Below, in pieces: positions 2,047 to 36,934 of a DNA stretch of 64,000 bases (the first letter of the stretch is position 1; every line of letters starts with the position of its first letter). The DNA is from Candidatus Omnitrophota bacterium (lineage in GTDB: Bacteria > Omnitrophota > Gorgyraeia > JAFGHF01). The stretch spans positions 4,628-68,627 of the forward strand of contig JBHPFV010000005.1 of the NCBI GenBank assembly GCA_042571705.1, written 5' to 3'. The position numbers and the translations under genes were made by a program. The notes below the pieces were generated by a model. It was not told where the DNA came from. It did not search any database and saw only the letters and a list, made by a program, of their open reading frames with translations.

Positions 2047-2087
2047 GAGCGAAAAATGTAAAGCGAAAAGCGAAAAATGGGGCGAAA

Positions 2088-3983: not shown

Positions 3984-3992
3984 GAGCGAAAA

Positions 3993-6260
3993 ATGAGAAA
4001 CAATATAACCAGTCTTTCTATTCTGATTTTACTGTGGCTGATCCTGCCGCAAGGACCAGCCTGTGCAGAAGGTCCAACAGACTATGTCGCTTATTGGAAG
4101 CTGGATGAAACCAGCGGCAGTTTAGCTGCGGACGCCTCCGGCAATGGAATCAACGCGACCCTGCAAGGCAATGCGTCGTGGCTGCCTTCAGGCGGCAGGG
4201 TGGACGGGGCTTTGAGTCTGGACGGATCGGATGATTACGCACTCTCGAGCGACCACAGCATGCTGGACAGCGCGCATCTGACTGTGGCCGCGTGGATCTA
4301 CCACGACACAAACCAGGATGGCTGGCGCGTGATCGCTACCCGGCAGATGGGCACGGGCAACGCTGAGCACTACTTCCTTGGTCTTTGCAACAACGAATTG
4401 CGCTGGATGGTGCGGACCGAGAACGGTGTTTCGGGCCATACCACAGCCATGCCCACGATCTTCCCAGGCCAGTGGGTACACCTGGCCGGCACCTTTGACG
4501 GCCAGGCCGTGCGCGGCTACGTGAATGGTGTCGAGGTATTCAGCTACGCCCACAGTGGCAGCATCGCTGCGGACAGCAATGGCATTTGTATCGGTGCCGG
4601 CAACAACAGCGGCACTTGGGTTGAGTTTTTTGACGGCCGCATCGACGATCTGCGCATCTACAACTATGCCCTGACTGCCGCCGAGATTGCGGCTCTGACA
4701 CCCGTTGTTGTCAATGATCGAATACGTCCCTGGGCTGCAAATACCCGGTACTGGCAGTATAAGGGAGAGCCGGTACTGCTTTTAGGCGGAAGCAAGCAGG
4801 ACAATCTGTTCCAGATACCGGACCTGGAAGAGCACCTTGACCTGCTGGCAAGCGTCGGCGGCAACTACATCCGCAACACCATGAGCGACCGTGAGGAGGG
4901 CAATGTCTATCCTTACAGACAACTCCCAAGCGGACTATATGATCTCGATCAGTGGGAAGATGAGTACTGGGAGAGATTTGATACCATGCTTCGCCTTACC
5001 AATGAGCGAAACATCATAGTACAAATCGAGGTCTGGGATCGGTGGGATTTTGCCGATGGTCATTGGTTGGGGATCGAGAGCTGGGGGCCGCATCCGTACC
5101 GTCCCGCCAACAACGTCAATTATACGGAGGAAGAAACAGGGTTGGCGGAGAGCTATCCGAACATGAACTTACATCCCTTCTTTTTCACAGTCCCCGGCAT
5201 GGAGAACTACGAACCGCGATATGACCTCCTTCGTGGATACCAGGAGCGTTTCGTCGCAAAGATGCTCTCGTACAGCCTTCCCTACGGCAATGTTCTTTAT
5301 TGCATGAACAACGAGACCCCCGCTGAGGTAGCGTGGGGGCAGTACTGGATGGCATTTATCAAATCTCAGGCGGAACAGGCCGGCGTGGACGTCTGCGTGA
5401 CAGACATGTTCATTGACGTATACGATCCAGAAAACTCTGACAAGCTCAAGGTGATGCTGGACAACCCGCAGCTTTATGATTTTCTCGACGTCTCACAGGT
5501 CAATAACAGGAACTTCGGTGACACCCACTGGAATCGGTTGCATTGGATTGTCGAACAAGTTAATGTCCATCCGCGTCCCATCAATCACACCAAGATATAT
5601 TCTGATGGTGCACCCGATATATGGTGGGCAGGTACGCCGCAGGACGGAATCGAGCGATTCTGGCGAAATATCCTATGCGGATCGGCTTCGTCCAGGTTCC
5701 ATCGTCCGCCAGCTGCTGGAATCGGCCTTAACGAAACGGCGCAGGCCTGTATTCGGGCGGCAAGAAAGGCTGAAGGCCTGGTTCGTTTCTGGGATCTTAA
5801 GCCGCACATGGAATTGATCAGCGATCGTAGCGAAAACGAGGCTTACCTCGCCGCGAGCCCCGGAGAGGCATACGTTTTGTTTTTCTCTCTCGGGGGCAGC
5901 GTGCAATTGAATATGGCGGACGTTGCAGGGTCCATGACGCTGACATGGATCAATATAAGCTCCGGAGAATTTGGCGGAAGCAGTGACGTGGCCGGTGGCG
6001 GGGTCACGACGATTACCGCGCCAAGCGCATCGCCCTGGGTGGCCGTAATTATCAATTGCTACGGCGATGTTTCCGAAAACGGCTCGCTTTCAGCCTATGA
6101 CGCTTCCTTAGCTGCTCAATACGCGGTCGGCTTAATTACTTTAACTGCCAATCAAATTACTAAAGCCGATGTTACCGGAAACGGTTCAGTCTCGGCAACA
6201 GACGCCTCCTGGATTGCCCGCAAGGCGGTTGATGCCAGCGTGGTCTTTCCGGTCGAATAG
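3993..6260 (+). CDS. Secreted LamG-lectin domain + glycosidase-like (TIM-barrel-like) protein with C-terminal dockerin
   Basis: Signal peptide. LamG/concanavalin-like domain ending in FDGRIDDLRIYNYALTAAEIAAL. The central ~400 aa resemble a glycoside-hydrolase barrel, but this assignment is weak. C-terminal dockerin (DVSENGSLSAYDA, DVTGNGSVSATDA). Confidence 0.7.
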   Translation: MRNNITSLSILILLWLILPQGPACAEGPTDYVAYWKLDETSGSLAADASGNGINATLQGNASWLPSGGRVDGALSLDGSDDYALSSDHSMLDSAHLTVAAWIYHDTNQDGWRVIATRQMGTGNAEHYFLGLCNNELRWMVRTENGVSGHTTAMPTIFPGQWVHLAGTFDGQAVRGYVNGVEVFSYAHSGSIAADSNGICIGAGNNSGTWVEFFDGRIDDLRIYNYALTAAEIAALTPVVVNDRIRPWAANTRYWQYKGEPVLLLGGSKQDNLFQIPDLEEHLDLLASVGGNYIRNTMSDREEGNVYPYRQLPSGLYDLDQWEDEYWERFDTMLRLTNERNIIVQIEVWDRWDFADGHWLGIESWGPHPYRPANNVNYTEEETGLAESYPNMNLHPFFFTVPGMENYEPRYDLLRGYQERFVAKMLSYSLPYGNVLYCMNNETPAEVAWGQYWMAFIKSQAEQAGVDVCVTDMFIDVYDPENSDKLKVMLDNPQLYDFLDVSQVNNRNFGDTHWNRLHWIVEQVNVHPRPINHTKIYSDGAPDIWWAGTPQDGIERFWRNILCGSASSRFHRPPAAGIGLNETAQACIRAARKAEGLVRFWDLKPHMELISDRSENEAYLAASPGEAYVLFFSLGGSVQLNMADVAGSMTLTWINISSGEFGGSSDVAGGGVTTITAPSASPWVAVIINCYGDVSENGSLSAYDASLAAQYAVGLITLTANQITKADVTGNGSVSATDASWIARKAVDASVVFPVE

Positions 6261-10338: not shown

Positions 10339-10680
10339 ATGCTCGGAATAGATATAATCAATATCGCGCGGATTAAAAGCATGTACCAGAAACACGGCCT
10401 GGCTTTCGTGGAGAAAATCCTGGATCAGCGGGAGATCAGCGATCTGCCTCTTAAGAAAAACAGCTATTTTTTTAAAAAGCTATGTTGTTATATTGCCTCT
10501 AAAGAGGCGATTTTTAAGGCCTGCTCAGAATATAAGCTAGAATGGAAGGAAATTTCCATCAGGGACATCTCCGCTGCCCCGAAAATTCAGATCAGCCGGC
10601 CAAATTTTAAAAAAAAGATCAAGCTGACATTTAGCGTTAGAAAGGACTTGGTCCTCTCGCAAGCCATAGTTACTGAATAA
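10339..10680 (+). CDS. acpS: Holo-ACP synthase (4'-phosphopantetheinyl transferase)
   Basis: GIDIINIARI N-terminus and the ASKEAIFKA motif. The size (~113 aa) is typical of AcpS. Confidence 0.85.
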   Translation: MLGIDIINIARIKSMYQKHGLAFVEKILDQREISDLPLKKNSYFFKKLCCYIASKEAIFKACSEYKLEWKEISIRDISAAPKIQISRPNFKKKIKLTFSVRKDLVLSQAIVTE

Positions 10681-11225
10681 TGAACATCGGACAAAAAATA
10701 AAAAATCTGCGGATTAGCCAGGACCTGACTCTCAAGGTGTTAGCCGGGAAGGCCGGGGTCACGATCAGCTTTCTCTCCCAATTAGAAAGAGGGTTGACCT
10801 CTCCTTCAATCAGTTCTTTGGAAAAGATTGCCCAGGCCCTGAATTTACAGGTAGTTAATTTCTTCCAGGATCAGGAAATCAAGGAGATAGTTTTCGTCAG
10901 AAAGGGCGCCGGGCGGAAAGTTAAATATAAAATGCGCCAGATTTTGGTTGAGGCCCTGGCTTCGGGGTTTTCCGACGTCAATATGCAGTCACAACTTTTT
11001 ACGCTGGGCGCGGGGGCCAACCTGACCAAAGATTTTATTCCCGCTTACGGAGAGAAGTTCGCCACGGTCATAAAAGGCAGCGCAAAATTATTTTTTGACG
11101 ATAAGGAGTTTGCCTTTAAGCAGGGTGACAGTATATATTACACCGCCACGCAGGCGCAGTGTAAGATAGTCAACATCGGAAGTGCTAAAGCCGAAATCCT
11201 TTTGATCTCTTTTGTGCGCGATTAG
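10680..11225 (+). CDS. XRE-family HTH + cupin domain transcriptional regulator
   Basis: N-terminal HTH_XRE (IKNLRISQDLTLKVLAGKAGVTISFLSQLERG). C-terminal cupin-like beta region. The start overlaps the acpS stop by 1 nt. Confidence 0.8.
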   Translation: MNIGQKIKNLRISQDLTLKVLAGKAGVTISFLSQLERGLTSPSISSLEKIAQALNLQVVNFFQDQEIKEIVFVRKGAGRKVKYKMRQILVEALASGFSDVNMQSQLFTLGAGANLTKDFIPAYGEKFATVIKGSAKLFFDDKEFAFKQGDSIYYTATQAQCKIVNIGSAKAEILLISFVRD

Positions 11226-11250
11226 CCAAAAAAGCCGGTTTGAACAAGGC

Positions 11251-11637
11251 ATGGGCATGGGCAAAAAAATATCGGAAAAGAGAAGGCAAAGCCGCCTGAA
11301 CGACAACGTTTTTCTTTCTTATCGGGTGCAGAAAAAACTGTTAGGAGAATTCAAGGCGGTGACGCGGAATATCAGCTCCGCTGGCTTGATGTTTGAGGCC
11401 GAAAAAGACTTTTATCCTGATCAGGACCTGACGCTGGAGATTTACCAGCCGGTTAATCGATTTAAGACATTAATTTATGTTATCCCGGCTACGGCCAGGG
11501 TAGTTTGGACAAATAAGATTAGACAGGGCTTTTTTGAATTAGGAGAAAATAGATACAGGATGGGGGTGGAATTTACTAAGATTAGCCCCCAGGATAAGGC
11601 AGTGATTATGCGTTATGTCCAAGAGCAAGGCGATTAA
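11251..11637 (+). CDS. PilZ domain protein (c-di-GMP receptor type)
   Basis: RxxxR (RRQSR) and N-x-S-x-x-G (NISSAG) PilZ motifs. The ORF opens at 11212, but Met 11251 lies past the upstream stop. Confidence 0.75.
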   Translation: MGMGKKISEKRRQSRLNDNVFLSYRVQKKLLGEFKAVTRNISSAGLMFEAEKDFYPDQDLTLEIYQPVNRFKTLIYVIPATARVVWTNKIRQGFFELGENRYRMGVEFTKISPQDKAVIMRYVQEQGD

Positions 11638-11677: not shown

Positions 11678-11706
11678 TTTACAGTATAGCTTAAAAATGA
11701 TAGAAT
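11678..11706 (+). promoter_or_regulatory. Candidate sigma-70 promoter (TTTACA-17-TAGAAT) immediately upstream of the KS-like gene
   Basis: -35 tttaca at 11678-11683, 17-nt spacer, -10 tagaat at 11701-11706. The ATG lies only 6 nt downstream and has no Shine-Dalgarno. Confidence 0.4.
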
Positions 11707-11712: not shown

Positions 11713-12939
11713 ATGTGCGCTAAGGAAAATGTGATTTCAAGTATAGGCATTGTTGCCGCCAGCGGGGTCGGCAAAGAAGAGTTTTGGTCTGGCCTGGAAA
11801 GAGGCGAGGATTATCTGGCTGAGCTTAATTTAATCCCCGATGCAGATTTTCCGGTCAAAATGGCGGCCGAGGTCAAGGAGTTAGACGCCAAAGGCTTTTT
11901 AGGGCCCAAGGGGTTGCGTAATTTAGACCGCAGCGCGCTGTTTTTACTCATCGCCGCGCAGCAAGCCATTCAGGAGGCCGGATTGCAGATTGACCAGAAT
12001 AACTGCGAAAACATCGGGGTCTGCACAGGGACGACCTTTAGCCACTTATGGTCAATTTTCGCGTTTGATCAGGAGGTATCTGATCAGGGTGTAGAGCTAG
12101 CTAATCCGGCCCTTTTTCCTTCTAACGTAATGAATGCCGCCTCCTCTCATGTTTCTATACGCTACAATATACAGGGGTTCAATGCCACAATCAGCACCGG
12201 ATGCGCCTCAAGTATTGCCGCCCTGGACTATAGCGTTAATGCCTTAGAGACTAAAAGAGCCGAAGTTGCTTTGGCCGGCGCGGTAGAAACCTTAAATTTA
12301 CCCTTGCTATTGGGTTTTCATAAATTGGGATACATGGCCGGCCTAAAAGGCCAGCTGCTCAATTGCCCCTTTGATCGCCGCAGGAACGGTCCTGTTTTCG
12401 GGGAAGCGGCAGTGATGTTTTGCGTAGAGGACTCACGCCGGGCCCAGGAAAGAAATGTCCGGCCTTTGGCTAGAATACGCAGCGTAATTAATATTATGAA
12501 TCCTTTCGGTCAAGGCCTGGAGCAGGCGATTAAGCGCGCGCTGGATCAAGCCGGGGTGGGGCTGGATGATATCGACTATATTTCCAGCTGCGCTAATTCT
12601 TCGCAAGATTTAGATAAAACAGAGGTCGCGGCCTTAAAAGGTATCTTTGGCAACAAGCTAAAAAAAATACCTGTCAGTTCGATAAAATCAATGCTGGGGG
12701 AGACCTTATCCGCTTCGGCCGGTCTGCAAGTCGCTTCTTGCATCGGGGCGATGGAAAGGGGGATTATTCCTCCGACCATAAATTACCGGGAAGAGGATCC
12801 GGAATGTTTGATTGACTGCGTGCCGAATAAAGCCCAAAAAAAAGAAGTGGATTTAGCGTTAGTTATCGCTTCTGGGCTGGGAGGGTATAGCAGCGCCTGT
12901 ATTTTAGAAAAATACTCAGAGCAAAAAAAAGAGAGATGA
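11713..12939 (+). CDS. Beta-ketoacyl synthase-like protein with non-canonical catalytic residues (Cys present, both His replaced)
   Basis: KS fold with the active-site context TGCASSIAALDY. The position of the first catalytic His reads ISSCANSS. The second reads SIKSMLGETLSA (Glu). Confidence 0.8.
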   Translation: MCAKENVISSIGIVAASGVGKEEFWSGLERGEDYLAELNLIPDADFPVKMAAEVKELDAKGFLGPKGLRNLDRSALFLLIAAQQAIQEAGLQIDQNNCENIGVCTGTTFSHLWSIFAFDQEVSDQGVELANPALFPSNVMNAASSHVSIRYNIQGFNATISTGCASSIAALDYSVNALETKRAEVALAGAVETLNLPLLLGFHKLGYMAGLKGQLLNCPFDRRRNGPVFGEAAVMFCVEDSRRAQERNVRPLARIRSVINIMNPFGQGLEQAIKRALDQAGVGLDDIDYISSCANSSQDLDKTEVAALKGIFGNKLKKIPVSSIKSMLGETLSASAGLQVASCIGAMERGIIPPTINYREEDPECLIDCVPNKAQKKEVDLALVIASGLGGYSSACILEKYSEQKKER

Positions 12940-13691
12940 GCGAAACCGCAGAGTTTAAACAGCAGACTGTAATCATTACCGGAGGCTCATCCGGTATCGG
13001 CCGGGCCTTGTGCCTGGCCTTTGCCAAGCTGGGGGCCAATATAGTTTTTACATTTAACAAGAGCAAGGACAAGGCGCGGGAATTAAAACAAATAATCGCG
13101 GATCTTGGTGTCCCTTGTCTGGTTGTGCCCACGGAGATTAAAGACTATGGACAATGCCGCGAAGTCATCGAACAGGCGATAGCTCAATTTTCCAAAATCG
13201 ATATTTTAATCAATAACGCCGGGATAGTCAGGGACCGGGCCTTAATGATGATGCTGCAGGAAGACTGGCAAGAGGTGATCGATACAAATTTAGGCGGCGT
13301 ATTTAACATGAGCCGGGCGGCCATTACCACCTTTTTAAAGCAGCGCCAGGGATGTATTATCAATATCAGCTCAGTCAGCGGATTAATCGGCCTGCCTCGC
13401 CAGACCAATTACAGCGCGGCTAAGGCCGGGATCATTGGTTTTTCTAAAGCGCTGGCTAAGGAAGTCGCGGCTTATAATATCCGGGTCAATGTAGTCTGTC
13501 CGGGATATATCAAAACAAATATGGTTAGTTCGCTAAAAAAAGAATTACTCGATTCTCTGATTAATGCCATTCCTTTTAAACGTCTGGGAGATCCTGAGGA
13601 AGTGGCTGAGTTGTGCGTATATTTAAGCTCAACTCGAGCACGTTATATTACCGGGGAGGTGGTCAAGATAGATGGCGGATTAGCAATTTAA
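12936..13691 (+). CDS. 3-oxoacyl-ACP reductase (SDR, FabG-like)
   Basis: TGGSSGIGRA cofactor motif, NNAG, and the YSAAK catalytic motif. ATGA overlap with the upstream gene. Confidence 0.9.
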   Translation: MSETAEFKQQTVIITGGSSGIGRALCLAFAKLGANIVFTFNKSKDKARELKQIIADLGVPCLVVPTEIKDYGQCREVIEQAIAQFSKIDILINNAGIVRDRALMMMLQEDWQEVIDTNLGGVFNMSRAAITTFLKQRQGCIINISSVSGLIGLPRQTNYSAAKAGIIGFSKALAKEVAAYNIRVNVVCPGYIKTNMVSSLKKELLDSLINAIPFKRLGDPEEVAELCVYLSSTRARYITGEVVKIDGGLAI

Positions 13692-13712: not shown

Positions 13713-13967
13713 ATGCCCAAACAATGCTTTGAGGAGATGGAGCAGGAAGTAAGAAAGATACTGGCCCAGGTTGCTGAGACTTCCGAGGAGGAAATTAGCG
13801 ATGACGCCGACCTGGCAAATGATTTAGGCGTCGACAGCATGATGGCGCTGGAGATTGTGGTGATGCTGGAAAAAAAATATAAGATTAAGATTCCGGAACA
13901 GCGAATACCGACCATTCGCTCGTTTCGTAATGTGCTGGAATTGCTGGAAGAACTACTGGAGCAATAA
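13713..13967 (+). CDS. Acyl carrier protein
   Basis: 84 aa, acidic, with the phosphopantetheine attachment context LGVDSMMALE. Preceded by an AGGAGG RBS. Confidence 0.85.
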   Translation: MPKQCFEEMEQEVRKILAQVAETSEEEISDDADLANDLGVDSMMALEIVVMLEKKYKIKIPEQRIPTIRSFRNVLELLEELLEQ

Positions 13968-13971: not shown

Positions 13972-14421
13972 ATGCAAAGTTTTGTAGATATGAATTGGCT
14001 AAGAGAAGTCTTGCCGCAAAAGTATCCCTTTTTCTTTATTGACCGGATATTAAGCGCCGACATCAAAGCCGGCCGCGTTGTTTGTTTGAAGAATATGACT
14101 ATCGATGAGTATTTTTTTAGAGGGCATTTTCCTGACCATCCGGTTGTGCCGGGGGCATTTATTATCGAGACCTTAGCCCAGGCCAGCATTGTATTATACG
14201 CGCTCTGCAAACCAAATTTGGCCCGGAAAAAGCCGGATTACTATTTAGGCAAAGTGGAAACTAAATTTCTCAGGCCGGTAAAACCGGGAGACCAGTTGAT
14301 TCTGGAGGTACGCAGCTTAAGGCTTTTGGATACAGCCGGGCTGGTCAGCGCCAAGGCCTTAGTAGATAATCAGCTTGCGGCCAGCGCCAAAATATCCTTT
14401 GGAGTTAAGCTAAAACAGTGA
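13972..14421 (+). CDS. 3-hydroxyacyl-ACP dehydratase (FabZ-like hot-dog fold)
   Basis: HFPDHPVVPGAFIIETLAQ catalytic His motif typical of FabZ. Confidence 0.85.
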   Translation: MQSFVDMNWLREVLPQKYPFFFIDRILSADIKAGRVVCLKNMTIDEYFFRGHFPDHPVVPGAFIIETLAQASIVLYALCKPNLARKKPDYYLGKVETKFLRPVKPGDQLILEVRSLRLLDTAGLVSAKALVDNQLAASAKISFGVKLKQ

Positions 14422-15614
14422 AAAATACTGTAGCGGTGATAGGTTTAGGAGTAGTTTCGGCGTTGGGTATCGGAATAGATAATTTTTGGCGCAACTTAAT
14501 TGCCGGCGAATCAGGCATCAGCAAAATTGATGCCTTTGACACCAGTAAGTATAGCCGGGAGTATGCCGGCGAAATAAAAAGATTCGACCCTGATCAGTTC
14601 ATGCCCGCGAAAACAAGCCGATTGTTAGGCCGGGCCGCGCAATTCGCGATCGCGGCCACAAAATTAGCGCTTGAGGATGCCTGTATCAGAACAGCAGAAT
14701 TAAAGAGCAGGAAAGTAGCCGTTATATTAGGAACAACTCTTCCGGAAGGTAATGCCCTGGATCACGTGTCCCGGCTATTGGTCCAGAAAGAAATAAGCAA
14801 GTTGTCCCCTAGAGACTTGCTCAGTATTTTCCCGCCGTCTATCCCGATGAATGTCAGCGCTCATTTAGGCATTGAATCGACCAACTTTTTAATCCCTTGC
14901 GCTTGCGCGGCGGGAAATTACGCTATTGGCTATGGGTTTGATTTATTACAGAGCGGGGCTGTTGATTTAGCGATAGTCGGGGGAGCCGAGGCCATTTCCC
15001 GGCTTACTTTCCAGGGATTTCATCGCTTAGCGGCCATGGCTCCGGAGAAATGTGCCCCTTTTGACCGGCATAGAAAGGGGATGCTGGTCGGAGAAGGAGC
15101 GGGCATATTAATCCTGGAACGCTCAGCTACCAAAAACTCATCGGCCTATGCCCAAATTTTAGGCTATGGACTTTCCTGCGACGCGCACCATATAGCCATT
15201 CCTAAGAAAGAAGGCCTGAAGAAGGCAATCACCAAGGCCTTGGGCAATGCCAAGATAACCGCAGGAGATCTAGATTATATTAATGCCCACGGTACCGGAA
15301 CGCTGGCGAACGATAAAACAGAATCCGCCGTCATAAAAGAACTATTTTCCGCCAGGCCTAAAAAGATACCGGTCAGTTCAATAAAATCAATGCTCGGACA
15401 TTGTATGGGCGCGGCCTCGAGCATCGAGGCGATTGCCTGCTGTATGGCGCTTAAAGAGCAGCTCATCCCGCCGACGATAAATTTTACCACTGCCGATCCA
15501 GAATGCGACATTGACTGCGTGCCCAACAAGGCGCGGCGGATCAAGCTAAAGACTGTTTTAAATAATAGCTTTGCCTTTGGAGGTAATAACTGTTGTGTTG
15601 TCTTCGCTAACTAG
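14418..15614 (+). CDS. Beta-ketoacyl-ACP synthase II-like (canonical Cys-His-His)
   Basis: Active-site Cys (PCACAAGNYA), INAHGTGT and SIKSMLGHCMGAAS motifs. The GTG start overlaps the upstream stop (GTGA). Confidence 0.9.
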   Translation: MKNTVAVIGLGVVSALGIGIDNFWRNLIAGESGISKIDAFDTSKYSREYAGEIKRFDPDQFMPAKTSRLLGRAAQFAIAATKLALEDACIRTAELKSRKVAVILGTTLPEGNALDHVSRLLVQKEISKLSPRDLLSIFPPSIPMNVSAHLGIESTNFLIPCACAAGNYAIGYGFDLLQSGAVDLAIVGGAEAISRLTFQGFHRLAAMAPEKCAPFDRHRKGMLVGEGAGILILERSATKNSSAYAQILGYGLSCDAHHIAIPKKEGLKKAITKALGNAKITAGDLDYINAHGTGTLANDKTESAVIKELFSARPKKIPVSSIKSMLGHCMGAASSIEAIACCMALKEQLIPPTINFTTADPECDIDCVPNKARRIKLKTVLNNSFAFGGNNCCVVFAN

Positions 15615-16698
15615 ATGTAAACGCTGCGGTTTACCAGAGACTTATCCGGGAATAAAATTTAACCGGGAGGGCAATTGCAATTATTGCGTTTATCATGATC
15701 TGTCCAAGGAACGCGAGCGGATAATTAAGTCAGAGCTAAAGGGTCAATTCAGGAAACTGATCAAAAAAATAAAACGCCAAAATCACAAATATGATTGTAT
15801 CGTGGCCTATAGCGGCGGAAAAGACAGCACCTTTCTTTTGCAGTTCCTGAAAAATGAGTTTGGCTTAAAGATCCTGGCCCACACCTTAGATAATGGATTT
15901 ATTTCCCGGGCTGCGTTAAAAAATATCAAGAGCATCACCAGCGTGTTGAACATCGATTATAAAATAACCAGGCCGCAATGGGGCGTATTAAAAAAGGTTT
16001 TCACTCAGGCCTTACTGAATAAATTTCCTTACCCAAAAGAAATTCTGGCCTTAGCCAGTCCGGTCTGCGCGGTATGTATCGGCATGGTGTTTGGCTCAAC
16101 GATAAATTTGGCCATGGAGTCAAAGATACCGCTGATGTTTATCGGCTTTACCCCGGGCCAGTACCCGACGATTAGCTTAGAGAACTTTCTCAAAGTGCAA
16201 TCCTGCATGTTCCTTTCCGATAAAGTCTATCGAGACGATCCGCTGGATATATTAAAAGTCCTGGCCGATCCGGTCAAAGAGCAATTTGGGCATCAGGTAG
16301 AGAAATATTACTTTAGCAGCCAGTATTTCTCAACAGGCCTGCCGGTGCCAAAAGTCCTTTTTCCTTTCCATGTTATTGTTGATTATGACGAAAAACAGAT
16401 CCTGCGGGAGATCGCGAAAATCGGCTGGGTCAAGCCCAAAGATACGGATAGTTGTTCCACGAATTGCTTGCTGAATACCGCCGGTAACTATGCCTGCGTC
16501 AAGCAACTGCGCTATCATCCGTATATTGGGGAATTAGCTCATTCAGTCCGGGAAGGTAAGATCAGCCGCCGCCAGGCCCTGGAAACGGCCAGGACCAAAA
16601 CAGATTCCTACGCGCTGAAGCGCTCATTGCGGGCGTTAGGGCTAAGTAAAAATGAGATTATTAGGCAAAATGAAAAATATCCCAAAAGAAAAAAATAA
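15571..16698 (+). CDS. PP-loop ATP pyrophosphatase, N-acetyl-sugar-amidotransferase-like
   Basis: N-terminal Zn-ribbon-like CKRCGLPETYPGIKFNREGNCNYC, then the PP-loop AYSGGKDS. The true start is probably GTG/TTG near 15595. Confidence 0.65.
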   Translation: MPLEVITVVLSSLTRCKRCGLPETYPGIKFNREGNCNYCVYHDLSKERERIIKSELKGQFRKLIKKIKRQNHKYDCIVAYSGGKDSTFLLQFLKNEFGLKILAHTLDNGFISRAALKNIKSITSVLNIDYKITRPQWGVLKKVFTQALLNKFPYPKEILALASPVCAVCIGMVFGSTINLAMESKIPLMFIGFTPGQYPTISLENFLKVQSCMFLSDKVYRDDPLDILKVLADPVKEQFGHQVEKYYFSSQYFSTGLPVPKVLFPFHVIVDYDEKQILREIAKIGWVKPKDTDSCSTNCLLNTAGNYACVKQLRYHPYIGELAHSVREGKISRRQALETARTKTDSYALKRSLRALGLSKNEIIRQNEKYPKRKK

Positions 16699-18286
16699 TG
16701 CCCCGGGAGCGGACTTAAATAGTTTTGAGCTCACCGTGCGAATCAGCGGGACTTTATTGGGTCAGCTCAACACCAGGCAGATTTTTCTCTCGCCTTATTC
16801 TCTGATCGCGCCGATGGCCCAAATTCTCGGCTTAAATACACCGGCGATGGGCAGCGGCAATTCACCGTATTCGATTACCTCCTTTATTTTTGACTGGCAG
16901 GATCAGGCCGAGTTGCTCAGGCAGGCCTTTAACATACCATTAAGCGAAAAAAGAAAGATTATCGACGAATTCTATGAAATGATCGCCCCGGTTTTATTGA
17001 GTCAGGAGCAGGAATACATCGAGCTCTTAGTCAACACCAAATATAAACGGGCATTAAGCGGTTCGGCAAAACAGACTCGGAGAATCAAGCAAATACTGAG
17101 GAAAAAATTTTCCATTTTTTCAGCTTTGATCAATCGGTATAGCTACAAAAAAGGGGATTATGGTTACATCGTCCATTACGGCTACCCCGAAGATTTATAT
17201 AGAGAACATGATTTTTTGCAAAAGTTGCCCCGGGCCCGGGCCCAACAATGGCGCGCTGGTTCATTTCCCATAGTCAACGAGATGGTGTTTAATAATTTTC
17301 CCGGTTCGGGCTTAAAGTCGAAGACTAAGGTCCAGGGCTGGGTAATCTTTATCGCTAACTATACAAAAGAGTTGTTGGAGGATAGCAGTTTAAGGAAAAA
17401 CAAGATTTTGCAGGCCGCCCGATTGGCCGAAAAATTAGGCGCCAAAATCGTCGGGATGGGCGGGTTAGTGGCCTCATTTGCCCAAGGCGGCCAGTGGCTA
17501 TCCAGGCAGTTAAAAGACGTTGGTTTTAGCACTGGCCACGCCTATACAATAGGGAATATTCTGGAAATGATCGACAACACTGTTGAAAAGGTGGGCCTTG
17601 AAATAAATGAGGCGACTATTGCCGTGCTTGGGGCCGCAGGTTCTATTGGCTCAGGATGCGTCAAGTTATTAGCCCCCAGGAAGCCAAAAAGCGTGATTTT
17701 GATCGATTTAAACAGTTTTAACGCCCAGCAAAACTTAGAGCTGCTCAATCGGACAATTAAACAAAAAAGTCCGGATACACGGGTGAAATTCTCCGCTAAA
17801 CTCAGCGATATGCGTACTGCGGATATAGTGATTGTGGCCACAAATTCACCAACTTCGCTGATCGCCGCGGAACACTTAAAGCCCGGGGCGATCTTGATTG
17901 ACGACTCCTTTCCGAAAAATGCTTCTCAAGAACTGCTGAGCCAACGCGATGATATCATTCTATTAGAAGGCGGGATCATGCAGCTACCGAAAGGGCTGGA
18001 TATCTTTTTTGCCAGAAATATGCCTGATTTAATGGATGCCCCCTTAACCCGGGTCATTAGCTGTAAACAGACCTACGGTTGTTTCGCGGAAATTCTAGTC
18101 TTGGCCTTGTTTGGTCATCGCGGCAACTATGGCTTAGGCTATTCCGACCCTGAATTAGCGGAAAAAATAATATCAAGATCCAGGGAAGCCGGTTTTTCGC
18201 TGGCGCCGGCGCAGTGCTTTGATCGGGCGGTTGAGGAAAAAAGATTCAGGCGGATCAGCCGGATAGTCAAACAAAGGCAACGCTGA
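16652..18286 (+). CDS. Long-chain acyl-ACP reductase (cyanobacterial AAR / COG5322-type) homologue with ~200-aa N-terminal extension
   Basis: The C-terminal ~340 aa are colinear with AAR as I recall it: GMGGLVAS, ATIAVLGAAGSIGSG (Rossmann), AILIDDSFPKN, and TYGCFAEILVLALFG (position of the catalytic Cys). The start is uncertain (16652 or 16670). Confidence 0.65.
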   Translation: MRLLGKMKNIPKEKNNAPGADLNSFELTVRISGTLLGQLNTRQIFLSPYSLIAPMAQILGLNTPAMGSGNSPYSITSFIFDWQDQAELLRQAFNIPLSEKRKIIDEFYEMIAPVLLSQEQEYIELLVNTKYKRALSGSAKQTRRIKQILRKKFSIFSALINRYSYKKGDYGYIVHYGYPEDLYREHDFLQKLPRARAQQWRAGSFPIVNEMVFNNFPGSGLKSKTKVQGWVIFIANYTKELLEDSSLRKNKILQAARLAEKLGAKIVGMGGLVASFAQGGQWLSRQLKDVGFSTGHAYTIGNILEMIDNTVEKVGLEINEATIAVLGAAGSIGSGCVKLLAPRKPKSVILIDLNSFNAQQNLELLNRTIKQKSPDTRVKFSAKLSDMRTADIVIVATNSPTSLIAAEHLKPGAILIDDSFPKNASQELLSQRDDIILLEGGIMQLPKGLDIFFARNMPDLMDAPLTRVISCKQTYGCFAEILVLALFGHRGNYGLGYSDPELAEKIISRSREAGFSLAPAQCFDRAVEEKRFRRISRIVKQRQR

Positions 18287-18882
18287 TGATGGATGTCTTA
18301 GAACTAATCAAATCCAGGCGGACTATACGCAGATATCAGGATAAACCGGTTCCCCAGGTAATGGTCAAAAAAATTATTGAAGCCGGGATTTGGGGCCCGT
18401 CTTTGTTGGCCCCGGGTTTCCAGCCCTGGGTATTCATTCCGCTGGTGGATCAGGCGTTGATCAAAAGAATTAGCGGTATTATGCTGGAGCGGTCAAAAAG
18501 CGCCGGGGTCCTGGGCAGAAGGATTTTGACTTTGAGCGCGGAGACAATAGCCAACGCCAAAACAGTAATCGCGGTTTACAATTGTTCCTGCCTGGCTAAA
18601 TTTACGGAAAAAATTACAAAACCGTATGTAAAATACGCTAAGGCCGCTGAACTATCCGCGATATCCGCCGCTATTCAAAATATGGTGCTGACCGCGGAAA
18701 GTTTCGGAATAGGCTCCAGCTGGCACGACACACCGCTGTTTTGCGAAAAAGGCATTAACCAATTACTTAATACAGACAATAAGTTAGTCGCGGTTTTAAC
18801 TTTTGGCTATCCTGCCGAAACCGGCCAGCGCGCTCGCCGTAAACCGCTGGCTGAAGCAGTGCATTATCAGAAATTTGCCTAA
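18286..18882 (+). CDS. Nitroreductase-family (FMN) oxidoreductase
   Basis: RRTIRRYQDKPV N-terminal signature with typical size and topology. The ATG overlaps the upstream TGA by 1 nt. Confidence 0.75.
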   Translation: MMDVLELIKSRRTIRRYQDKPVPQVMVKKIIEAGIWGPSLLAPGFQPWVFIPLVDQALIKRISGIMLERSKSAGVLGRRILTLSAETIANAKTVIAVYNCSCLAKFTEKITKPYVKYAKAAELSAISAAIQNMVLTAESFGIGSSWHDTPLFCEKGINQLLNTDNKLVAVLTFGYPAETGQRARRKPLAEAVHYQKFA

Positions 18883-18883
18883 G

Positions 18884-20314
18884 ATGAAAAAATATGACGC
18901 GATAATTATTGGTTCCGGAATCGGGGGCTTAAGCTGCGGTTGTTATTTAACCAAGTATGGCGCCAAGGTCTTGATCGTTGAGCAACACTCTCAGGCCGGG
19001 GGCTACTGTTCCTCATTTTCCAGGGCCGGTTATCGATTTGATGTCGGAGTGCATTATTTGGGCGGTCTGAAGAGGACTTTCCTGAAAAATATCTTTGATG
19101 AATTAGAGCTGACCGGGACGATTCAGTTTAAACAGTTCGATCCCACGGATAAAATTACTCTGCCTGACCGCAGCACTTACATCAGGGCCAAGCTCTCAGA
19201 AACTAAATCTGAGTTTAAAAACAGTTTTCCCAAAGAAGCAGCTAACATTGAACGGTTCTTTAGTTTTATTACCCGCAAAGACCTGTTTCAGATCTATAAG
19301 AAAATCAAGCGCTTAAATTTCCAACAGATTCTAGATGAGTTTTTCACGGACTATAAATTAAAAGCGGCGTTAGAGATAATGCTCTGTAATTTCGGGCTTG
19401 CGGCCAGCCAGGCTGCCGCCTTGACCGGTGTAATTTTGTATCGGGACTATATCTTGGATGGAGGGTATTATCCTGAAGGCGGTATGCAAGGACTTAGCCA
19501 GGCCTTCGTGAATAGATTCAAGAGCCATGGAGGCGAGCTGGTCTTAAATAAAAAGGTCGAGCGGATATTAGTCCAAAATAAAAAGGCCAGGGGGGTAATG
19601 CTCAATGACGGTGAGCTGCTCAAGGCCGATGCGGTAATATCTAATGCCGACGCCACCCAGACCATTAAGCAGTTGTTAGCGGATGATGATTGCAAAGAAG
19701 CCAAAATTGTCGATCGCTTGCGGGTTTCGCCCTCGCTTTTTGTCCTCTATATTGGCACTGACCAAGACTTAGGCCGGTTTACAAATGAAACCTGCAATAT
19801 TTGGAGCGCCGATACTTATCGCTTCGGCCGGTTTATCGCTCAGTTAGATAAGTGTCTCAACAGGCCCAGTCCGCCTTTTTTGATGATTAGTTTTCCTTCC
19901 GCGCATAGGCATGGCTCCAACCTCAAGCGTAAAAACACAATTCAGTGTTTTTCAATAGTGCCGTTTAAATCGTCGCAGTTCTGGAATGATTACCGCGCTG
20001 AATTAACCGAAAGGTTAATTTCTCGAACGGCGAAGCTCCTGCCGGATTTAGAGAATCATATAAAAGTAAAAGTAACCGCGACCCCGCTTACTTTTCACAG
20101 GTATTCTCTTAATCGTGAAGGGGCCGGTTTCGGCTGGGCCTCAACTCCGGAGCAGGTGCGCTCTACGCTTTTTCCGCCAAAAAGTTCGATTGCCCGATTG
20201 TTTTTTACCGGTCATTGGTGTACAATAGGTAGTGGCCAGGGCGGAGTGCCCAAAGCGATTTTTTCGGGGAGAAAAACCGCGCGAATAGTTTTAAGCACGT
20301 TAGGGCAAATGTAA
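18884..20314 (+). CDS. FAD-dependent oxidoreductase of the phytoene desaturase (CrtI/RetSat-like) family
   Basis: KYDAIIIGSGIGGLSCG dinucleotide-binding motif followed by EQHSQAGGYC. The length is ~476 aa. The ORF opens at 18803, but Met 18884 follows the upstream stop. Confidence 0.8.
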   Translation: MKKYDAIIIGSGIGGLSCGCYLTKYGAKVLIVEQHSQAGGYCSSFSRAGYRFDVGVHYLGGLKRTFLKNIFDELELTGTIQFKQFDPTDKITLPDRSTYIRAKLSETKSEFKNSFPKEAANIERFFSFITRKDLFQIYKKIKRLNFQQILDEFFTDYKLKAALEIMLCNFGLAASQAAALTGVILYRDYILDGGYYPEGGMQGLSQAFVNRFKSHGGELVLNKKVERILVQNKKARGVMLNDGELLKADAVISNADATQTIKQLLADDDCKEAKIVDRLRVSPSLFVLYIGTDQDLGRFTNETCNIWSADTYRFGRFIAQLDKCLNRPSPPFLMISFPSAHRHGSNLKRKNTIQCFSIVPFKSSQFWNDYRAELTERLISRTAKLLPDLENHIKVKVTATPLTFHRYSLNREGAGFGWASTPEQVRSTLFPPKSSIARLFFTGHWCTIGSGQGGVPKAIFSGRKTARIVLSTLGQM

Positions 20315-20330: not shown

Positions 20331-22493
20331 ATGAATGTATTCGCTGTTTCCAGCGCTATCGTTTTCTGCACCAATATTGTCATCGCGCTATTTGTATTCT
20401 TTAAGAGAAAAGGGCAGAGGGCCAGTAAGGTCTTGGGCTGCTTCTGTTTCGTAGTTACCTTATGGGGCCTGGGCGGCTATATCTTCTCCACCGCGGCCAC
20501 CAAAGCGCAGGCCTATCTTGGTTGGCAAATCGGCTATATTTGCTGTATCCTCTCCAGTCCGATGTATTTTCACTTTGTCTATTTATTCCTTGATTTAAAG
20601 GAGAAATTTTACAAACATATTTTAACAATCGCGTATATCATGTCGGCGATTTTTCTGGCGCTGACACTTTGCTCCAAAGAATTATTTTTGGGCGATTTAA
20701 AATTTGTATTTAATCAATTCTATTGGACCAGCTGGGGGCCGGTCTGGCTAATCTATCACATCAGTTTTAATTGGATATTGTTGTCCTATGCTTTTTTCTT
20801 ATTGGTCAAGGCTTATCTTCCCTCTACGGGCATTGTGCGTAATCAATTAAAGTATTTCCTGTTGGGTTCGATTATGGGCTGGATCGGCGCCCACGGTGAC
20901 TACCAGGTCGCTTTTAATAAATACGTTTATCCATATTTCAATTTCTTGATTGCCTTTTACCCCGGATTGTGGGCTTACGCTATTATCAAATACCGTTTAA
21001 TGGATGTTCGCGTGGCGGTGACCCGGGCCGGATTGGTTATCGCTCTGTATACAGTTGTCTTAGGCGTTCCGTTTTACATCGGCTACCGCAGCCAAGACTG
21101 GTTTTTATCTACCGTCTTAGGCCTGTTTTTGGCTACCAGCGGTCCGCTGGCTTACCGTTTTTTGCAGAAAAGGGCTGAGGATTTATTGCTCCTCAAGCAG
21201 CGCCGCTATCAAAGGATTCTGGTTAAGGCCTCAAGATTAGTAGTCAAAGAATACCAGCTGGAGAAGCTGTTAAGATGGATTGTCCACGTGGTCAAGAAGA
21301 CCGTGGGGAGTACTTACGCGGCGGTATTTCTTTATGAAAGACAAAATAACATCTTTTGCCTGCGGACCAAAAGAGGAAACGGCCAAATCCCTGACGAATT
21401 AGCTTTCTCCTGCGACCACCCGTTTATTGATTATATGGCCCAGCAAAAAGAGCCCTTTTTCTATGAGGAATTGCCGCTATCGATCAGGATGTCTTTAAAT
21501 ATTCCGTTCGAGATAAATATCATTATTCCTTCTTTTATTGAAGACCAGCAATTGGGATTTCTTATTTTAGGTGAGAAAATAAATCAGCAATTTTATTCAT
21601 CAGACGATATAAATATTTTCAAGATGTTTGCCCGTCAGGCCGGGTTGGCAATTGAAAATGCCCAGTTTTACAGCCAATTACAGGCCGAAACGGATGTATT
21701 AAAACAGACAATTCAGCGCTTGCGTGATACTCAAGATGAACTGATTCAAACAGAAAAGCTGAACGCTGTGGGCCAATTGGCCAGCGGCGTGGCCCATGAG
21801 GTCAGAAATCCGCTGGGGATCATCATCCAGGGAGTTGACTTGCTGGAAGCGGAAATAGCCGAGCCTAAAAAACAAAATAAAGCGGAAATGACTAAAACTC
21901 TGCAGATGTTAAAAGATAGCGTACGCCGGGCTAATAGAATCGTCAGCTCACTGATTGATTTTTCTAAAGCTAGGAAATTGGAGTTAGGTCCGGAAGACAT
22001 CAATGCTGTCTTAGATAGCGCTTTAACTTTGGTAAAGTTTAAATTTAAGAACATCGAGCTGGTTAAAAAGTTTAAAAAGGATATCCCTAAAGTCCTGATT
22101 GACAAGCATAAAATTGAACAGGTATTTGTCAATGCCTTCTTAAACGCGGTCCAGGCCATGCCTGAAGGCGGAAAACTCACGATTCGCGTCAACGCTTATG
22201 ATAAAATGTTGGCAAGTATTGGTAAGGGCGTAGGCAGAAGAGGCAGCGATTATTTTAAATGCGGCGAACAAGCTGTGGTAGTGGAAATTGAGGATAGCGG
22301 CAGCGGCATTTCTGAGGAAAATTTAAAAATGATCTATGATCCGTTTTTTACCACTAAAGGCCCCAGCGGGGGCACAGGTTTAGGATTATACGTCAGCCAG
22401 AATATAATTAATATGCACAAGGGCCTGATCAATCTGGAAAGTCGGCTCGGCAAAGGCACAAAAGTAAGCGTTACCTTAAAAGTAGCGCAGTAG
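20331..22493 (+). CDS. Membrane sensor histidine kinase (multi-TM N-terminus, GAF-like, HisKA, HATPase)
   Basis: About 7 TM segments. H-box GVAHEVRNPL. N/G boxes (NAVQAM, DSGSGI, GTGLGL). Confidence 0.9.
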   Translation: MNVFAVSSAIVFCTNIVIALFVFFKRKGQRASKVLGCFCFVVTLWGLGGYIFSTAATKAQAYLGWQIGYICCILSSPMYFHFVYLFLDLKEKFYKHILTIAYIMSAIFLALTLCSKELFLGDLKFVFNQFYWTSWGPVWLIYHISFNWILLSYAFFLLVKAYLPSTGIVRNQLKYFLLGSIMGWIGAHGDYQVAFNKYVYPYFNFLIAFYPGLWAYAIIKYRLMDVRVAVTRAGLVIALYTVVLGVPFYIGYRSQDWFLSTVLGLFLATSGPLAYRFLQKRAEDLLLLKQRRYQRILVKASRLVVKEYQLEKLLRWIVHVVKKTVGSTYAAVFLYERQNNIFCLRTKRGNGQIPDELAFSCDHPFIDYMAQQKEPFFYEELPLSIRMSLNIPFEINIIIPSFIEDQQLGFLILGEKINQQFYSSDDINIFKMFARQAGLAIENAQFYSQLQAETDVLKQTIQRLRDTQDELIQTEKLNAVGQLASGVAHEVRNPLGIIIQGVDLLEAEIAEPKKQNKAEMTKTLQMLKDSVRRANRIVSSLIDFSKARKLELGPEDINAVLDSALTLVKFKFKNIELVKKFKKDIPKVLIDKHKIEQVFVNAFLNAVQAMPEGGKLTIRVNAYDKMLASIGKGVGRRGSDYFKCGEQAVVVEIEDSGSGISEENLKMIYDPFFTTKGPSGGTGLGLYVSQNIINMHKGLINLESRLGKGTKVSVTLKVAQ

Positions 22494-22501: not shown

Positions 22502-22930
22502 ATGGTGGCTCAGATGAAGAAAAAGAAGGTCATGATTGTCGACGATGAGCAGGATTTTCTGTATCTGACTAAGCTCAATTTAGAAAGAACCGGGCAATAC
22601 AGTGTTTTGACCTTATTAAGCGCGCAAGATATTGTCGCGCAGGTGCATTCCTTTAAACCTGATATTATATTACTGGATATCCTGATGCCCAGAATTGGCG
22701 GGATGGAGGTCTGTAAGATATTAAATAATGACCCCGTTGGCCAGAAGGTGCCGATCGTTATCCTTTCTGCCTTAGACAAAGACATCGATAAGCTTCAGGC
22801 CTATCAGGCCGGGGTGATAGATTTTCTGGTCAAACCCATAGAAAAGGCCGAGCTGATTGCCAGGGTAGAAAAAGCCCTAAGCTTAAATGAAATGGAGTCC
22901 GCAGATGAAGAAGAAAATATTGATTATTGA
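22502..22930 (+). CDS. Response regulator, receiver domain only
   Basis: MIVDDE, phospho-acceptor context ILLDILMP, and LVKP. No output domain. Confidence 0.85.
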   Translation: MVAQMKKKKVMIVDDEQDFLYLTKLNLERTGQYSVLTLLSAQDIVAQVHSFKPDIILLDILMPRIGGMEVCKILNNDPVGQKVPIVILSALDKDIDKLQAYQAGVIDFLVKPIEKAELIARVEKALSLNEMESADEEENIDY

Positions 22931-23279
22931 TGACGAAGAAGCTTTTACAAAATTAGTCAAATTAAATCTTGAACGCACTGAAAAATATCAAGTCAAAACG
23001 GAAAAACAAGGCTCGCGGGGCTTAGCTGCCGTGAAGAGATTTAAGCCAGACTTGATATTACTGGATGTATTGATGCCGGAGGTTGGAGGCGGTACAGTGT
23101 TTGCGCAAATAAAGGAAGACGAAAGCCTCAAAGATATTCCAGTGGTATTTTTGACTGCGGCTGCAAGAAAAGAAGAAGTAAGTTCTAGAGGCGGCGCCAT
23201 AGGCGGTCACCCGTTTATCGCCAAGCCTGTAAGTAAAAAAAAACTTATTGCTTGCATTGAACAGAACATCCGTAGCTGA
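22905..23279 (+). CDS. Response regulator, receiver domain only
   Basis: KILIIDDEE, LILLDVLMP, IAKP. The ORF opens at 22887; Met 22905 gives the canonical N-terminus. Confidence 0.85.
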   Translation: MKKKILIIDDEEAFTKLVKLNLERTEKYQVKTEKQGSRGLAAVKRFKPDLILLDVLMPEVGGGTVFAQIKEDESLKDIPVVFLTAAARKEEVSSRGGAIGGHPFIAKPVSKKKLIACIEQNIRS

Positions 23280-36088: not shown

Positions 36089-36934
36089 ATGATTATTTCA
36101 ATTGCCAGTGGAAAAGGTGGAACAGGAAAGACTACAATAGCCACCAGTCTTGCTCTCTCCATAAATAGTGGTGTTCAATTTTTAGACTGTGATGTTGAAG
36201 AACCCAACGCCCATATTTTCTTAAGACCAAAGATTCAGCAAAGTAAGGCGGTATCTGTTCCCGTACCTAAAATAGATGAATCTAAGTGCACTTTCTGCGG
36301 CAGGTGTGCGGAAGTTTGCGCCTATAATGCCCTTGCCGTGCTCAAGAATAAGGTGCTAACTTTTCCACATTTGTGCCACGGCTGTGGAGGTTGCAATCTT
36401 CTTTGTCCCCAAAAAGCAATCACGGAAGTTAATAAGGAAATAGGTGTTGTAGAAATTGGCAATTCAGCTAACTTGCAATTCATACATGGAAGATTAAATA
36501 TTGGCGAAGTAATGTCACCGCCTTTAATCAGAGCAGTTAAAGAGTACATTAATCCAACCCGGAGCGTAATTGTTGATGCTCCTCCGGGCACTTCTTGTCC
36601 TGTTATAGAGACAGTTAAAGGCAGTGATTTTTGTATGCTGGTTACCGAACCAACTCCTTTTGGTTTAAACGATTTGATATTAGCGGTTGAAGTTTTGAGA
36701 AAATTGAATATTTCCTTTGGAGTTATAGTAAATAGGTCTGGTATCGGAGACAATAGCCTGGGTCATTACTGCAAGAAAGAGAATATTCCTGTACTAATGC
36801 GGATCCCTTTTAGAAAAGAAATAGCTTTTGCCTATTCAAAAGGAATTCCTATTGTGAGTGAATTCCCAAAGTATAAGCAGGAATTTGTAAAGTTATATAA
36901 AGAAATCACGGAAAGAATAAGATGGAGCAAATAG
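36089..36934 (+). CDS. MinD/ParA-type P-loop ATPase with inserted 2x[4Fe-4S] ferredoxin domain
   Basis: Deviant Walker A SGKGGTGKTT. CTFCGRCAEVCAY and CHGCGGCNLLCP clusters. Confidence 0.85.
   Translation: MIISIASGKGGTGKTTIATSLALSINSGVQFLDCDVEEPNAHIFLRPKIQQSKAVSVPVPKIDESKCTFCGRCAEVCAYNALAVLKNKVLTFPHLCHGCGGCNLLCPQKAITEVNKEIGVVEIGNSANLQFIHGRLNIGEVMSPPLIRAVKEYINPTRSVIVDAPPGTSCPVIETVKGSDFCMLVTEPTPFGLNDLILAVEVLRKLNISFGVIVNRSGIGDNSLGHYCKKENIPVLMRIPFRKEIAFAYSKGIPIVSEFPKYKQEFVKLYKEITERIRWSK

Follow-up and report, generated by a model that had tools for sequence, protein, structure and literature searches.

A two-gene module of an AAR/TAD-superfamily protein and a PP-loop partner in a thiotemplated operon of an Omnitrophota bacterium

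[quoted passage not shown] The question was raised by a plus-strand gene in a 64-kb stretch of contig JBHPFV010000005.1 from a Candidatus Omnitrophota bacterium (the whole stretch is called the window below), whose product, the AAR-like protein, had been taken in a sequence-only reading for an AAR homologue outside cyanobacteria. The gene was found to be coupled to an upstream gene for a PP-loop ATP pyrophosphatase (the partner), and together they make up a two-gene module that is widespread but uncharacterised and that sits within a small thiotemplated operon. The reading that we favour, at somewhat less than an even chance, is that the AAR-like protein and its partner constitute a chain-release module exchanging the C1 oxygen of the chain for sulfur or nitrogen.

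Homology to AAR and the cofactor site

The AAR-like protein matched AAR (PDB 6JZQ) with E = 1.3e-13 in phmmer, and a profile of the 50-sequence AAR-like family did so with E = 1.3e-23, spanning AAR residues 6-321. Its AlphaFold2 (AF2) model (pLDDT 91.2, pTM 0.91) was matched to AAR by Foldseek with E = 8e-18 and a TM-score of 0.79-0.81 normalised on AAR, and the three-domain AAR fold was found in it, the position of the catalytic Cys at the domain interface included. The four motif pairs that the sequence-only reading had given were all recovered in the HMMER alignment, together with the catalytic Cys: IVGMGGLVAS/ISALGGFTSI, ATIAVLGAAGSIGSG/ATVAVVGATGDIGSA, AILIDDSFPKN/CVLIDGGYPKN, and TYGCFAEILVLALFG/MFACFAEAMLLEFEG (AAR-like protein/AAR in each case), the last of them including AAR Cys294, which equals C477 and was kept in 48 of the 50 family members. 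The GxxGxxG loop, the TTG and PKN motifs, and the equivalent of AAR H7 (H175) were also held in common. By these comparisons, the homology to AAR is real and far past chance, and the C-terminal ~375 aa, with both the Rossmann motif and the catalytic Cys in register, stood as a true homologue of AAR.

Identity as a shikimate or amino-acid dehydrogenase, against which the earlier assignment had been set, was rejected: the Pfam Rossmann matches were all sub-threshold; formate, malate, and amino-acid dehydrogenases ranked far below AAR and TAD (a domain of nonribosomal peptide synthetases, NRPSs; see below) in Foldseek; and the next-best folds had E > 5e-7 and a TM-score of ~0.35. The likelier start of the gene by homologue alignment was M7 (ATG 16670), giving 538 aa; the NCBI entry for the identical protein, from a Candidatus Omnitrophota metagenome-assembled genome (MAG), also had 538 aa from M7 and was labelled 'hypothetical protein'. 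The absence of a deformylating oxygenase, likewise claimed before, was corroborated: Pfam Ald_deCOase was matched by no open reading frame (ORF) of >=200 aa in the window, and it was also not found in the related loci examined.

Membership in AAR in the family sense did not survive. The AAR-like protein scored 75.4 bits (E = 5e-21) against TIGR04058 (AAR), the cut-off of which is 449.7, and it had lost the Arg triad for the NADPH phosphate: the NADPH specificity of AAR lies in R189, R193, and R314, which bind the 2'-phosphate (PMC7089970), and these aligned with L353, a gap, and Y497, respectively. The best curated hidden Markov model (HMM) was NF053554 (PigE), matched by residues 222-542 at model positions 56-360 with E = 1.9e-31 and 109 bits versus a cut-off of 850, and the top Foldseek match, ahead of AAR, was the TAD of the carmabin NRPS (9E4S-9E56; E = 2e-20).

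Two features have been described as setting TAD apart from AAR (bioRxiv 10.1101/2024.10.28.620694): (i) an Asp after beta2, which excludes NADP(H) and CoA, and (ii) a D-D-S-G-cisPro loop, the second Asp of which stacks on the nicotinamide and is Gly in AAR. Both had counterparts in the AAR-like family. Of the 50 members, 43 had Asp and 7 had Glu at the beta2-end residue 352, and D352 aligned with Asp2102 of TAD 'LCD'; the nicotinamide-pocket loop D417-D418-S419-F420-P421 aligned with TAD 'VDDSGP' and had D, D, and P in 50/50 (DDSFP in the AAR-like protein, DDSGP in TAD, and DGGYP in AAR). The junction motif T/S293-T294-G295-H296, with T294, G295, and H296 in all 50, gave the TTGH common to TAD and the AAR-like family, while AAR had TTGN and PigE had TSGN. 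For the C-terminal half around YGC477FAE, TAD gave a poorer alignment than AAR and PigE did. The dinucleotide site of the AAR-like protein thus looks TAD-like, which predicts NAD(H); this cofactor, rather than NADPH, would be expected because the Arg triad is missing and the beta2-end residue is acidic. Since the AAR cut-off was missed, the Arg triad was replaced, and the loop was DDSFP, NADPH-dependent acyl-ACP reduction to aldehyde is no longer the default expectation; the earlier interpretation as a whole is supported in part.

In a neighbour-joining tree built on 212 core columns without bootstrap, the ~530-aa family was monophyletic and formed its own clade, sister to short (~360 aa) Patescibacteria-type proteins, which carried TAD-type signatures too; AAR and PigE fell in another clade, and TAD grouped with proteins of three other loci (L064, L076, and L077). 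On this evidence, the AAR-like family is placed as a new clade of the AAR/TAD/PigE-reductase superfamily and not as an AAR orthologue. The protein remains an AAR relative outside cyanobacteria as had been claimed, but such an occurrence is not new because the PigE reductase domain (PMC8341465) and TAD were already known.

The three relatives compared as follows. AAR (6JZQ/6JZU) was colinear over its residues 6-321 and shared the step presumed to come first, in which the acyl group passes from ACP to Cys, but identity in the core was ~26%, and the AAR-like protein added a 165-aa helical domain and a 9-10-residue insertion with C471 (see below) and had a PP-loop partner in place of the aldehyde-deformylating oxygenase (ADO). 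TAD of the CarI and VatR NRPSs shared the invariant Cys, TTGH, the NAD(H)-selecting beta2 Asp, and the D-D-S-x-Pro loop, and function is unproven in TAD and in the AAR-like family alike; TAD is a C-terminal NRPS-module domain located after a peptidyl carrier protein (PCP), while the AAR-like protein is stand-alone in a type II operon, and the two differed further by ~25% identity, separate tree clades, an HMM alignment ending at residue 436, and the lack in TAD of a helical N-terminal domain and of a consistent partner. Some TAD clusters were noted by the TAD authors to have genes for PP-loop NAD synthetases next to them (bioRxiv 10.1101/2024.10.28.620694). The PigE N-terminal thioester-reductase domain (PMC8341465) had the Cys aligned (NGCMAE) and acts on a thioester substrate in a secondary-metabolite pathway, but in PigE it is joined to a class III aminotransferase, which uses up the aldehyde and has no counterpart in this operon, and the PigE signatures TSGN and DVALP are of the AAR-type class.

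Two further candidates were discarded: the tambjamine TabE 'novel acyl-ACP reductase' was an unrelated enzyme of the aldehyde dehydrogenase type, and the idea of an anammox ladderane cluster failed since Scalindua loci matched the Rossmann loop only and the source was an Omnitrophota MAG.

The N-terminal extension, reported before as ~200 aa without recognisable motif, was real and indeed unrecognisable, but its length was ~165 aa (residues 1-166), AAR residue 6 aligning near residue 172. It was predicted by AF2 as six helices (22-37, 48-58, 79-93, 97-115, 119-128, and 139-162) with pLDDT 88-91 in both full-length and isolated-domain models, and it contained the conserved motifs SPYS...Q..GL..P.MGSG.SPYS and ExRxIIDExYxMIAP.LL.E., with R101, D105, E106, and Y108 among the near-invariant polar residues. 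Foldseek gave no structural relative in PDB (best E 0.74). A profile of the domain searched against 1.84e9 representative proteins gave 24 matches, which were AAR-like family members or apparent fragments of them, bar a few weak ones; Microvirus H and cadherin were checked as outside relatives, and both were spurious. The domain is an orphan specific to the AAR-like family. The long family also had the 9-10-residue insertion before the catalytic Cys, with conserved R455, N456, P458, D462, S470, and C471. C471 lay six residues ahead of C477, was present in 47 of the 50 members, and was absent from AAR, PigE, and short homologues; the pair C471/C477 may relay sulfur or exert redox control.

The PP-loop partner and the distribution of the pair

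The gene context had been overlooked in the sequence-only reading, namely the coupled upstream PP-loop gene and the set for ACP, ketosynthase (KS), chain-length factor (CLF)-like subunit, ketoreductase (KR), and dehydratase (DH). Between the stop of the partner gene and the AAR-like start there was an overlap of 29-47 nt. Full-length homologues of the AAR-like protein numbered more than 110 (40-66% identity) and were found in Omnitrophota, Planctomycetia/Pirellulales, Acidobacteriota, Spirochaetes, and Poribacteria, and short AAR-like relatives were plentiful in Patescibacteria. A PP-loop gene lay directly upstream, overlapping or a few nucleotides off, in 18/18 distinct long-family loci with upstream DNA, while it was a neighbour of none of the 54 short homologues, all of which lacked the N-terminal domain; N-terminal domain and PP-loop partner hence co-occurred perfectly. 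An ACP adjoined the gene pair in most loci, including the other ones with readable surroundings, and frequent neighbours in related loci included ACP, KS pairs, KR, an ApeI/ApeP-like dehydratase, and a CrtI-like gene. The minimal Spirochaete locus had the order ACP, PP-loop, AAR-like, and fatty-acyl-AMP ligase (FAAL); the PP-loop enzyme is not needed there for acid loading, because the locus already has the acid-activating FAAL. An apparent 891-aa PP-loop/AAR-like fusion in L007 was dismissed: a TAA stop occurred at L007 9977-9979, and the genes were 6 nt apart.

The partner was matched over its whole length by TIGR03573 (E = 3.5e-39), with 135.2 bits versus a cut-off of 203.2. NASAT/WbuX enzymes are marked by a PP-loop SGGxDS and a tetracysteine CxxC-Xn-[GN]xCxxC (PMC10607449), and the partner had both the tetracysteine Zn motif and the PP-loop. 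Nine cysteines (C16, C19, C36, C39, C76, C166, C169, C295, and C299) were invariant in 17 partner orthologues. Genuine NASATs, in tblastn against plasmids, matched only residues ~12-200 of the partner, its N-terminal half; they adjoined HisH, HisF2/AglZ, and sugar genes, and the CxxC and CSTNC motifs were missing from them. No HisH/HisF or sugar genes were present near the partner gene. Identity of the partner as a canonical sugar amidotransferase was weakened by the lack of HisH/HisF and by Cys motifs absent from true NASATs. Set against NASAT/WbuX/WbpG (TIGR03573; PDB 8WEX), the partner was alike in the whole-length HMM match, the Zn tetracysteine, and SGGKDS, and unlike in its score under the cut-off, the absence of a HisH/HisF-type ammonia supplier, and the presence of CxxC plus CSTNC.

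The additional cysteines pointed elsewhere. C166xxC169 aligned with 'TTCSLCS' of E. coli TtcA (hhalign probability 88%, E = 3e-6), and in the TtcA/TtuA family that CxxC belongs to a [4Fe-4S] site with three Cys (PMC6772006). CtaC, the thioamide synthetase of closthioamide, acts on PCP-tethered substrates, has homologues in thiotemplated clusters of anaerobes, and contains sites for Zn, ATP (PP-loop D77/S78), and Fe-S (C154, C157, and C284) (PMC6772006). The motif spacings were 80 and 126-130 in the partner and 76 and 127 in CtaC, the latter taken from published CtaC residue numbers only; the C295/C299 region was outside the reach of the TtcA alignment and was compared with CtaC C284 by spacing alone. 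The partner was alike to CtaC and TtcA/TtuA in a Zn-binding Cys motif, a PP-loop, and CxxC with a putative third Cys, and to CtaC also in nearly identical spacing, a lineage tied to carrier-protein pathways, and likely anaerobic hosts; it was unlike TtcA, to which similarity was confined to the core, and unlike CtaC, which works on amides in the backbone of a peptide bound to a PCP, while a polyketide chain shows none. From its cysteine pattern, the partner probably carries an iron-sulfur cluster.

The CxxC motif was also kept in NRPS-embedded and Bacillus relatives of the partner, and the full-length relatives with extra Cys motifs included Bacillus genes annotated QueC. Within an NRPS of Roseovarius/Pseudohalocynthiibacter, a PP-loop domain was inserted between the AMP-binding core and AMP-binding_C, just before PCP (L088 6415-14463, Roseovarius pelagicus plasmid), and a PP-loop-Condensation fusion, with the PP-loop domain at its N-terminus, lay beside an A-PCP protein and AsnB in a Streptomyces plasmid (L089 8932-11112). 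Both PP-loop domains look like uncharacterised on-line tailoring domains.

How the chain may be released

In the favoured reading, an unsaturated acyl chain would be assembled on the dedicated ACP by enzymes of type II polyketide synthase (PKS)/fatty-acid synthase (FAS) type and would move to C477 in the manner of AAR, which has been proposed for TAD too. The partner would then adenylate a C1-proximal carbonyl oxygen, with the chain on the AAR-like protein or still on ACP, and replace that oxygen with sulfur (CtaC-like) or nitrogen (NASAT/QueC-like), so that a thio- or aza-carbonyl would terminate the product. In its most specific form, an amide would be made by the TAD-like body and then thioamidated by the partner, a guess that leans on the unproven function of TAD. 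The helical N-terminal domain may dock or gate the PP-loop partner, since it occurs only where that partner occurs. An altered end group seems likelier than a plain aldehyde because the cofactor site is of non-AAR type and the PP-loop pairing is constant.

Several points weigh against exchange of the C1 oxygen. Both families are known from sequence and models alone; amide formation by TAD was never shown, and no activity was reconstituted (bioRxiv 10.1101/2024.10.28.620694). CtaC was compared by its published residue numbers only, and the third Fe-S ligand of the partner is a candidate assigned by spacing. A polyketide chain offers a CtaC-like enzyme no amide unless the AAR/TAD-like protein makes one, and the operon had no sulfur-carrier or glutaminase gene. 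The best whole-length HMM of the partner is that of an amidotransferase, TIGR03573, and the best HMMs of the AAR-like protein are those of bona fide reductases, PigE and AAR.

This last point leads to the most serious contender, which we nevertheless consider unlikely: plain reductive release, in line with the sequence-only reading but NADH-dependent, in which an acyl-ACP thioester reductase resembling AAR or the PigE N-terminal domain frees a (poly)unsaturated fatty aldehyde from ACP, with the PP-loop, CrtI-like, and nitroreductase proteins acting elsewhere. It is in keeping with the reductase models that top the curated list (NF053554 and TIGR04058), with the closeness of the C-terminal half, YGCFAE included, to AAR and PigE, with a nicotinamide that would sit beside C477 as in AAR, and with the JGI label 'fatty aldehyde-generating acyl-ACP reductase' on several family members. 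It has to contend with the loss of all three NADPH-phosphate arginines of AAR and with D418 at the site of the nicotinamide-stacking Asp of TAD, which is said to favour NAD+ and is Gly in AAR. An aldehyde also has no carbonyl that PP-loop enzymes are known to adenylate, yet coupling of the PP-loop gene was 18/18 and co-occurrence of the N-terminal domain with it perfect, and no aminotransferase, ADO, or alcohol dehydrogenase able to use an aldehyde was present with the pair.

A LuxE/LuxC-like acid reductase, in which the partner adenylates a free fatty acid, C477 takes the acyl group, and NADH gives the aldehyde, would make sense of the tight translational coupling of both genes. LarE, QueC, NadE, and AsnB are PP-loop enzymes that adenylate carboxylates, and weak NCBIfam matches of the partner go in the same direction. 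It is nonetheless highly improbable in the face of the dedicated ACP beside the pair in most loci, the FAAL already beside it in the Spirochaete locus, and NRPS-embedded relatives whose substrate at that point is a thioester beforehand, and it leaves the conserved Fe-S-type Cys motif without a role.

A regulatory reading, in which the AAR-like protein is mainly an NAD(H)- or acyl-sensing subunit for the histidine kinase, concerns the kinase gene next door. A HisKA_7TM (PF16927) kinase gene followed the long family in the window and in L003, L009, L011, L012, L019, and L020, a short-type AAR-like gene in at least 23 loci, and a 577-aa AAR-like variant with a weak N-terminal PilZ match. The kinase gene thus follows the AAR-like clade in long, short Patescibacteria-type, and PilZ-fused architectures, and the short forms occur in Patescibacteria, which in general are not known to have fatty-acid synthesis. 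Such a role is nevertheless quite improbable, because hardly any variation was seen in the catalytic Cys or in the full set of active-site loops, the long family sits in a full ACP/KS/KR/DH operon with a phosphopantetheinyl transferase, and kinase adjacency was seen in only ~7/19 long-family loci. The adjacency suggests, circumstantially, that the product of the module or the state of the enzyme feeds signalling via the adjacent 7TM kinase, and the recurrent link bears on a sensor domain without a known ligand. The TTGH, beta2-Asp, and DD[S/A]xP signatures were observed in the window and at kinase-followed loci L011, L012, L020, L030, L031, L033, L036, L040, L052, L061-L063, L066, L076, and L085-L087.

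A bolder form of the oxygen-exchange reading is possible though doubtful: a previously unrecognised chain-termination machine for carrier-protein pathways that turns an ACP thioester directly into a terminal thio- or aza-carbonyl, for example a primary thioamide, thioacid, amidine, or nitrile, with an unusual lipid as the ligand of the 7TM kinase. The AAR superfamily is of relevance to biofuels, and it also provides an off-loading route for the assembly lines of natural products; its TAD branch has a solved structure, an undemonstrated reaction, and an unknown nitrogen source. The AAR-like/PP-loop pair would be a tractable way into TAD-type active-site chemistry, far more so than a megasynthase because it is stand-alone and locked to one ATP-dependent partner and a small ACP system; if the bolder form is true, the PP-loop enzyme would be a candidate for the 'missing component' behind the failed reconstitution of TAD in NRPS pathways. 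It would also extend the CtaC-type PP-loop lineage from NRPS to a PKS/FAS-like context. An orphan 165-aa domain is newly defined, and the uncultivated phyla involved are Omnitrophota, Planctomycetota, Acidobacteriota, and Spirochaetes.

The operon and the rest of the window

The operon genes were all on one strand and closely packed (Table 1). Weak evidence placed a sigma-70-like site at 11678-11706 and gave no convincing terminator before ~24.3 kb. An enoyl reductase was not present in the operon. KS_A had the signatures SCANSS and GETLSAS and is called CLF-like because both catalytic His were lost; the KS_A/KS_B pair differed from classical CLFs, which lose the Cys, in that KS_A kept it.

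Table 1. Coordinates of the operon, its flanking genes, and the sequence features of the AAR-like protein and its PP-loop partner (window positions)
Feature	Position	Strand	Remark
ACPS-type phosphopantetheinyl transferase	10339-10680	+	Directly upstream of the operon
Helix-turn-helix (HTH)-cupin regulator	10680-11225	+	Recurs in L005 and L009
PilZ protein	11212-11637	+	Recurs in L005 and L009
KS_A, CLF-like partner subunit	11713..12939	+	Cys kept, both catalytic His lost
FabG-type ketoreductase	12936..13691	+	
Dedicated acyl carrier protein	13713..13967	+	84 aa, DSM Ser motif
FabZ/FabA-fold dehydratase	13972..14421	+	Orthologues elsewhere match ApeI/ApeP-like families
Ketosynthase KS_B	14418..15614	+	Complete Cys-His-His triad
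PP-loop ATP pyrophosphatase (partner)	15571..16698	+	
Zn-ribbon CKRC...CNYC of partner	15616-15687	+	
C76 of partner	15796-15798	+	
SGGKDS PP-loop of partner	15811-15828	+	Residues 81-86
CAVC of partner	16066-16077	+	C166xxC169
CSTNC of partner	16453-16467	+	C295, C299
AAR/TAD-superfamily protein with N-terminal extension	16652..18286	+	544 aa from ATG 16652
Family-specific all-helical N-terminal domain	16652..17149	+	Residues 1-166; AF2
AAR/TAD-like catalytic body	17150..18283	+	Residues 167-544; alignment
S/TTGH motif of AAR-like protein	17528-17539	+	
GAAGSIGSG motif of AAR-like protein	17630-17656	+	
beta2-end Asp D352 of AAR-like protein	17705-17707	+	
DDSFPKN motif of AAR-like protein	17900-17920	+	
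C471 of AAR-like protein	18062-18064	+	
Catalytic C477 of AAR-like protein	18080-18082	+	
Nitroreductase-family flavoprotein (BluB/FbiB-like), accessory	18286..18882	+	Only Omnitrophota MAG loci
CrtI-family (phytoene-desaturase-like) flavoenzyme	18803..20314	+	Likelier start ATG 18884
HisKA_7TM-GAF histidine kinase	20331..22493	+	Recurrent beside AAR-like clade
Two single-domain response regulators	22502-22930, 22887-23279	+	

Elsewhere in the window, a second lipid-type cluster was located at 49399-58253, and it held (i) a 1144-aa fusion of a major facilitator superfamily (MFS) transporter, PlsC-acyltransferase, and AMP-binding domain (Aas-like), (ii) an alpha/beta hydrolase, a hexapeptide transferase, and two radical SAM proteins, and (iii) a 604-aa protein in which a FeeM-like N-acyl amino acid synthase is joined to a class I/II aminotransferase. 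A 1712-aa ORF at 41683-46821 had no Pfam match at E <= 1e-3, and a 207-aa ORF at 47074-47694 on the minus strand, with nearly all surrounding genes on the plus strand, gave a weak LAGLIDADG_3 match.

Three successive large secreted-type proteins occupied window positions 22-6260, and all three end in a type I dockerin domain; one contained a beta-helix and one a Laminin_G_3/ConA-like domain. Such a dockerin trio is uncommon in Omnitrophota and hints at surface assemblies of the cohesin-dockerin kind. At 36089-40071, two tandem ParA/CbiA-type P-loop NTPases were found, both of which carry a 2x[4Fe-4S] ferredoxin domain as an insert, and after them came a metallo-beta-lactamase-fold protein and a polyferredoxin-like membrane protein.

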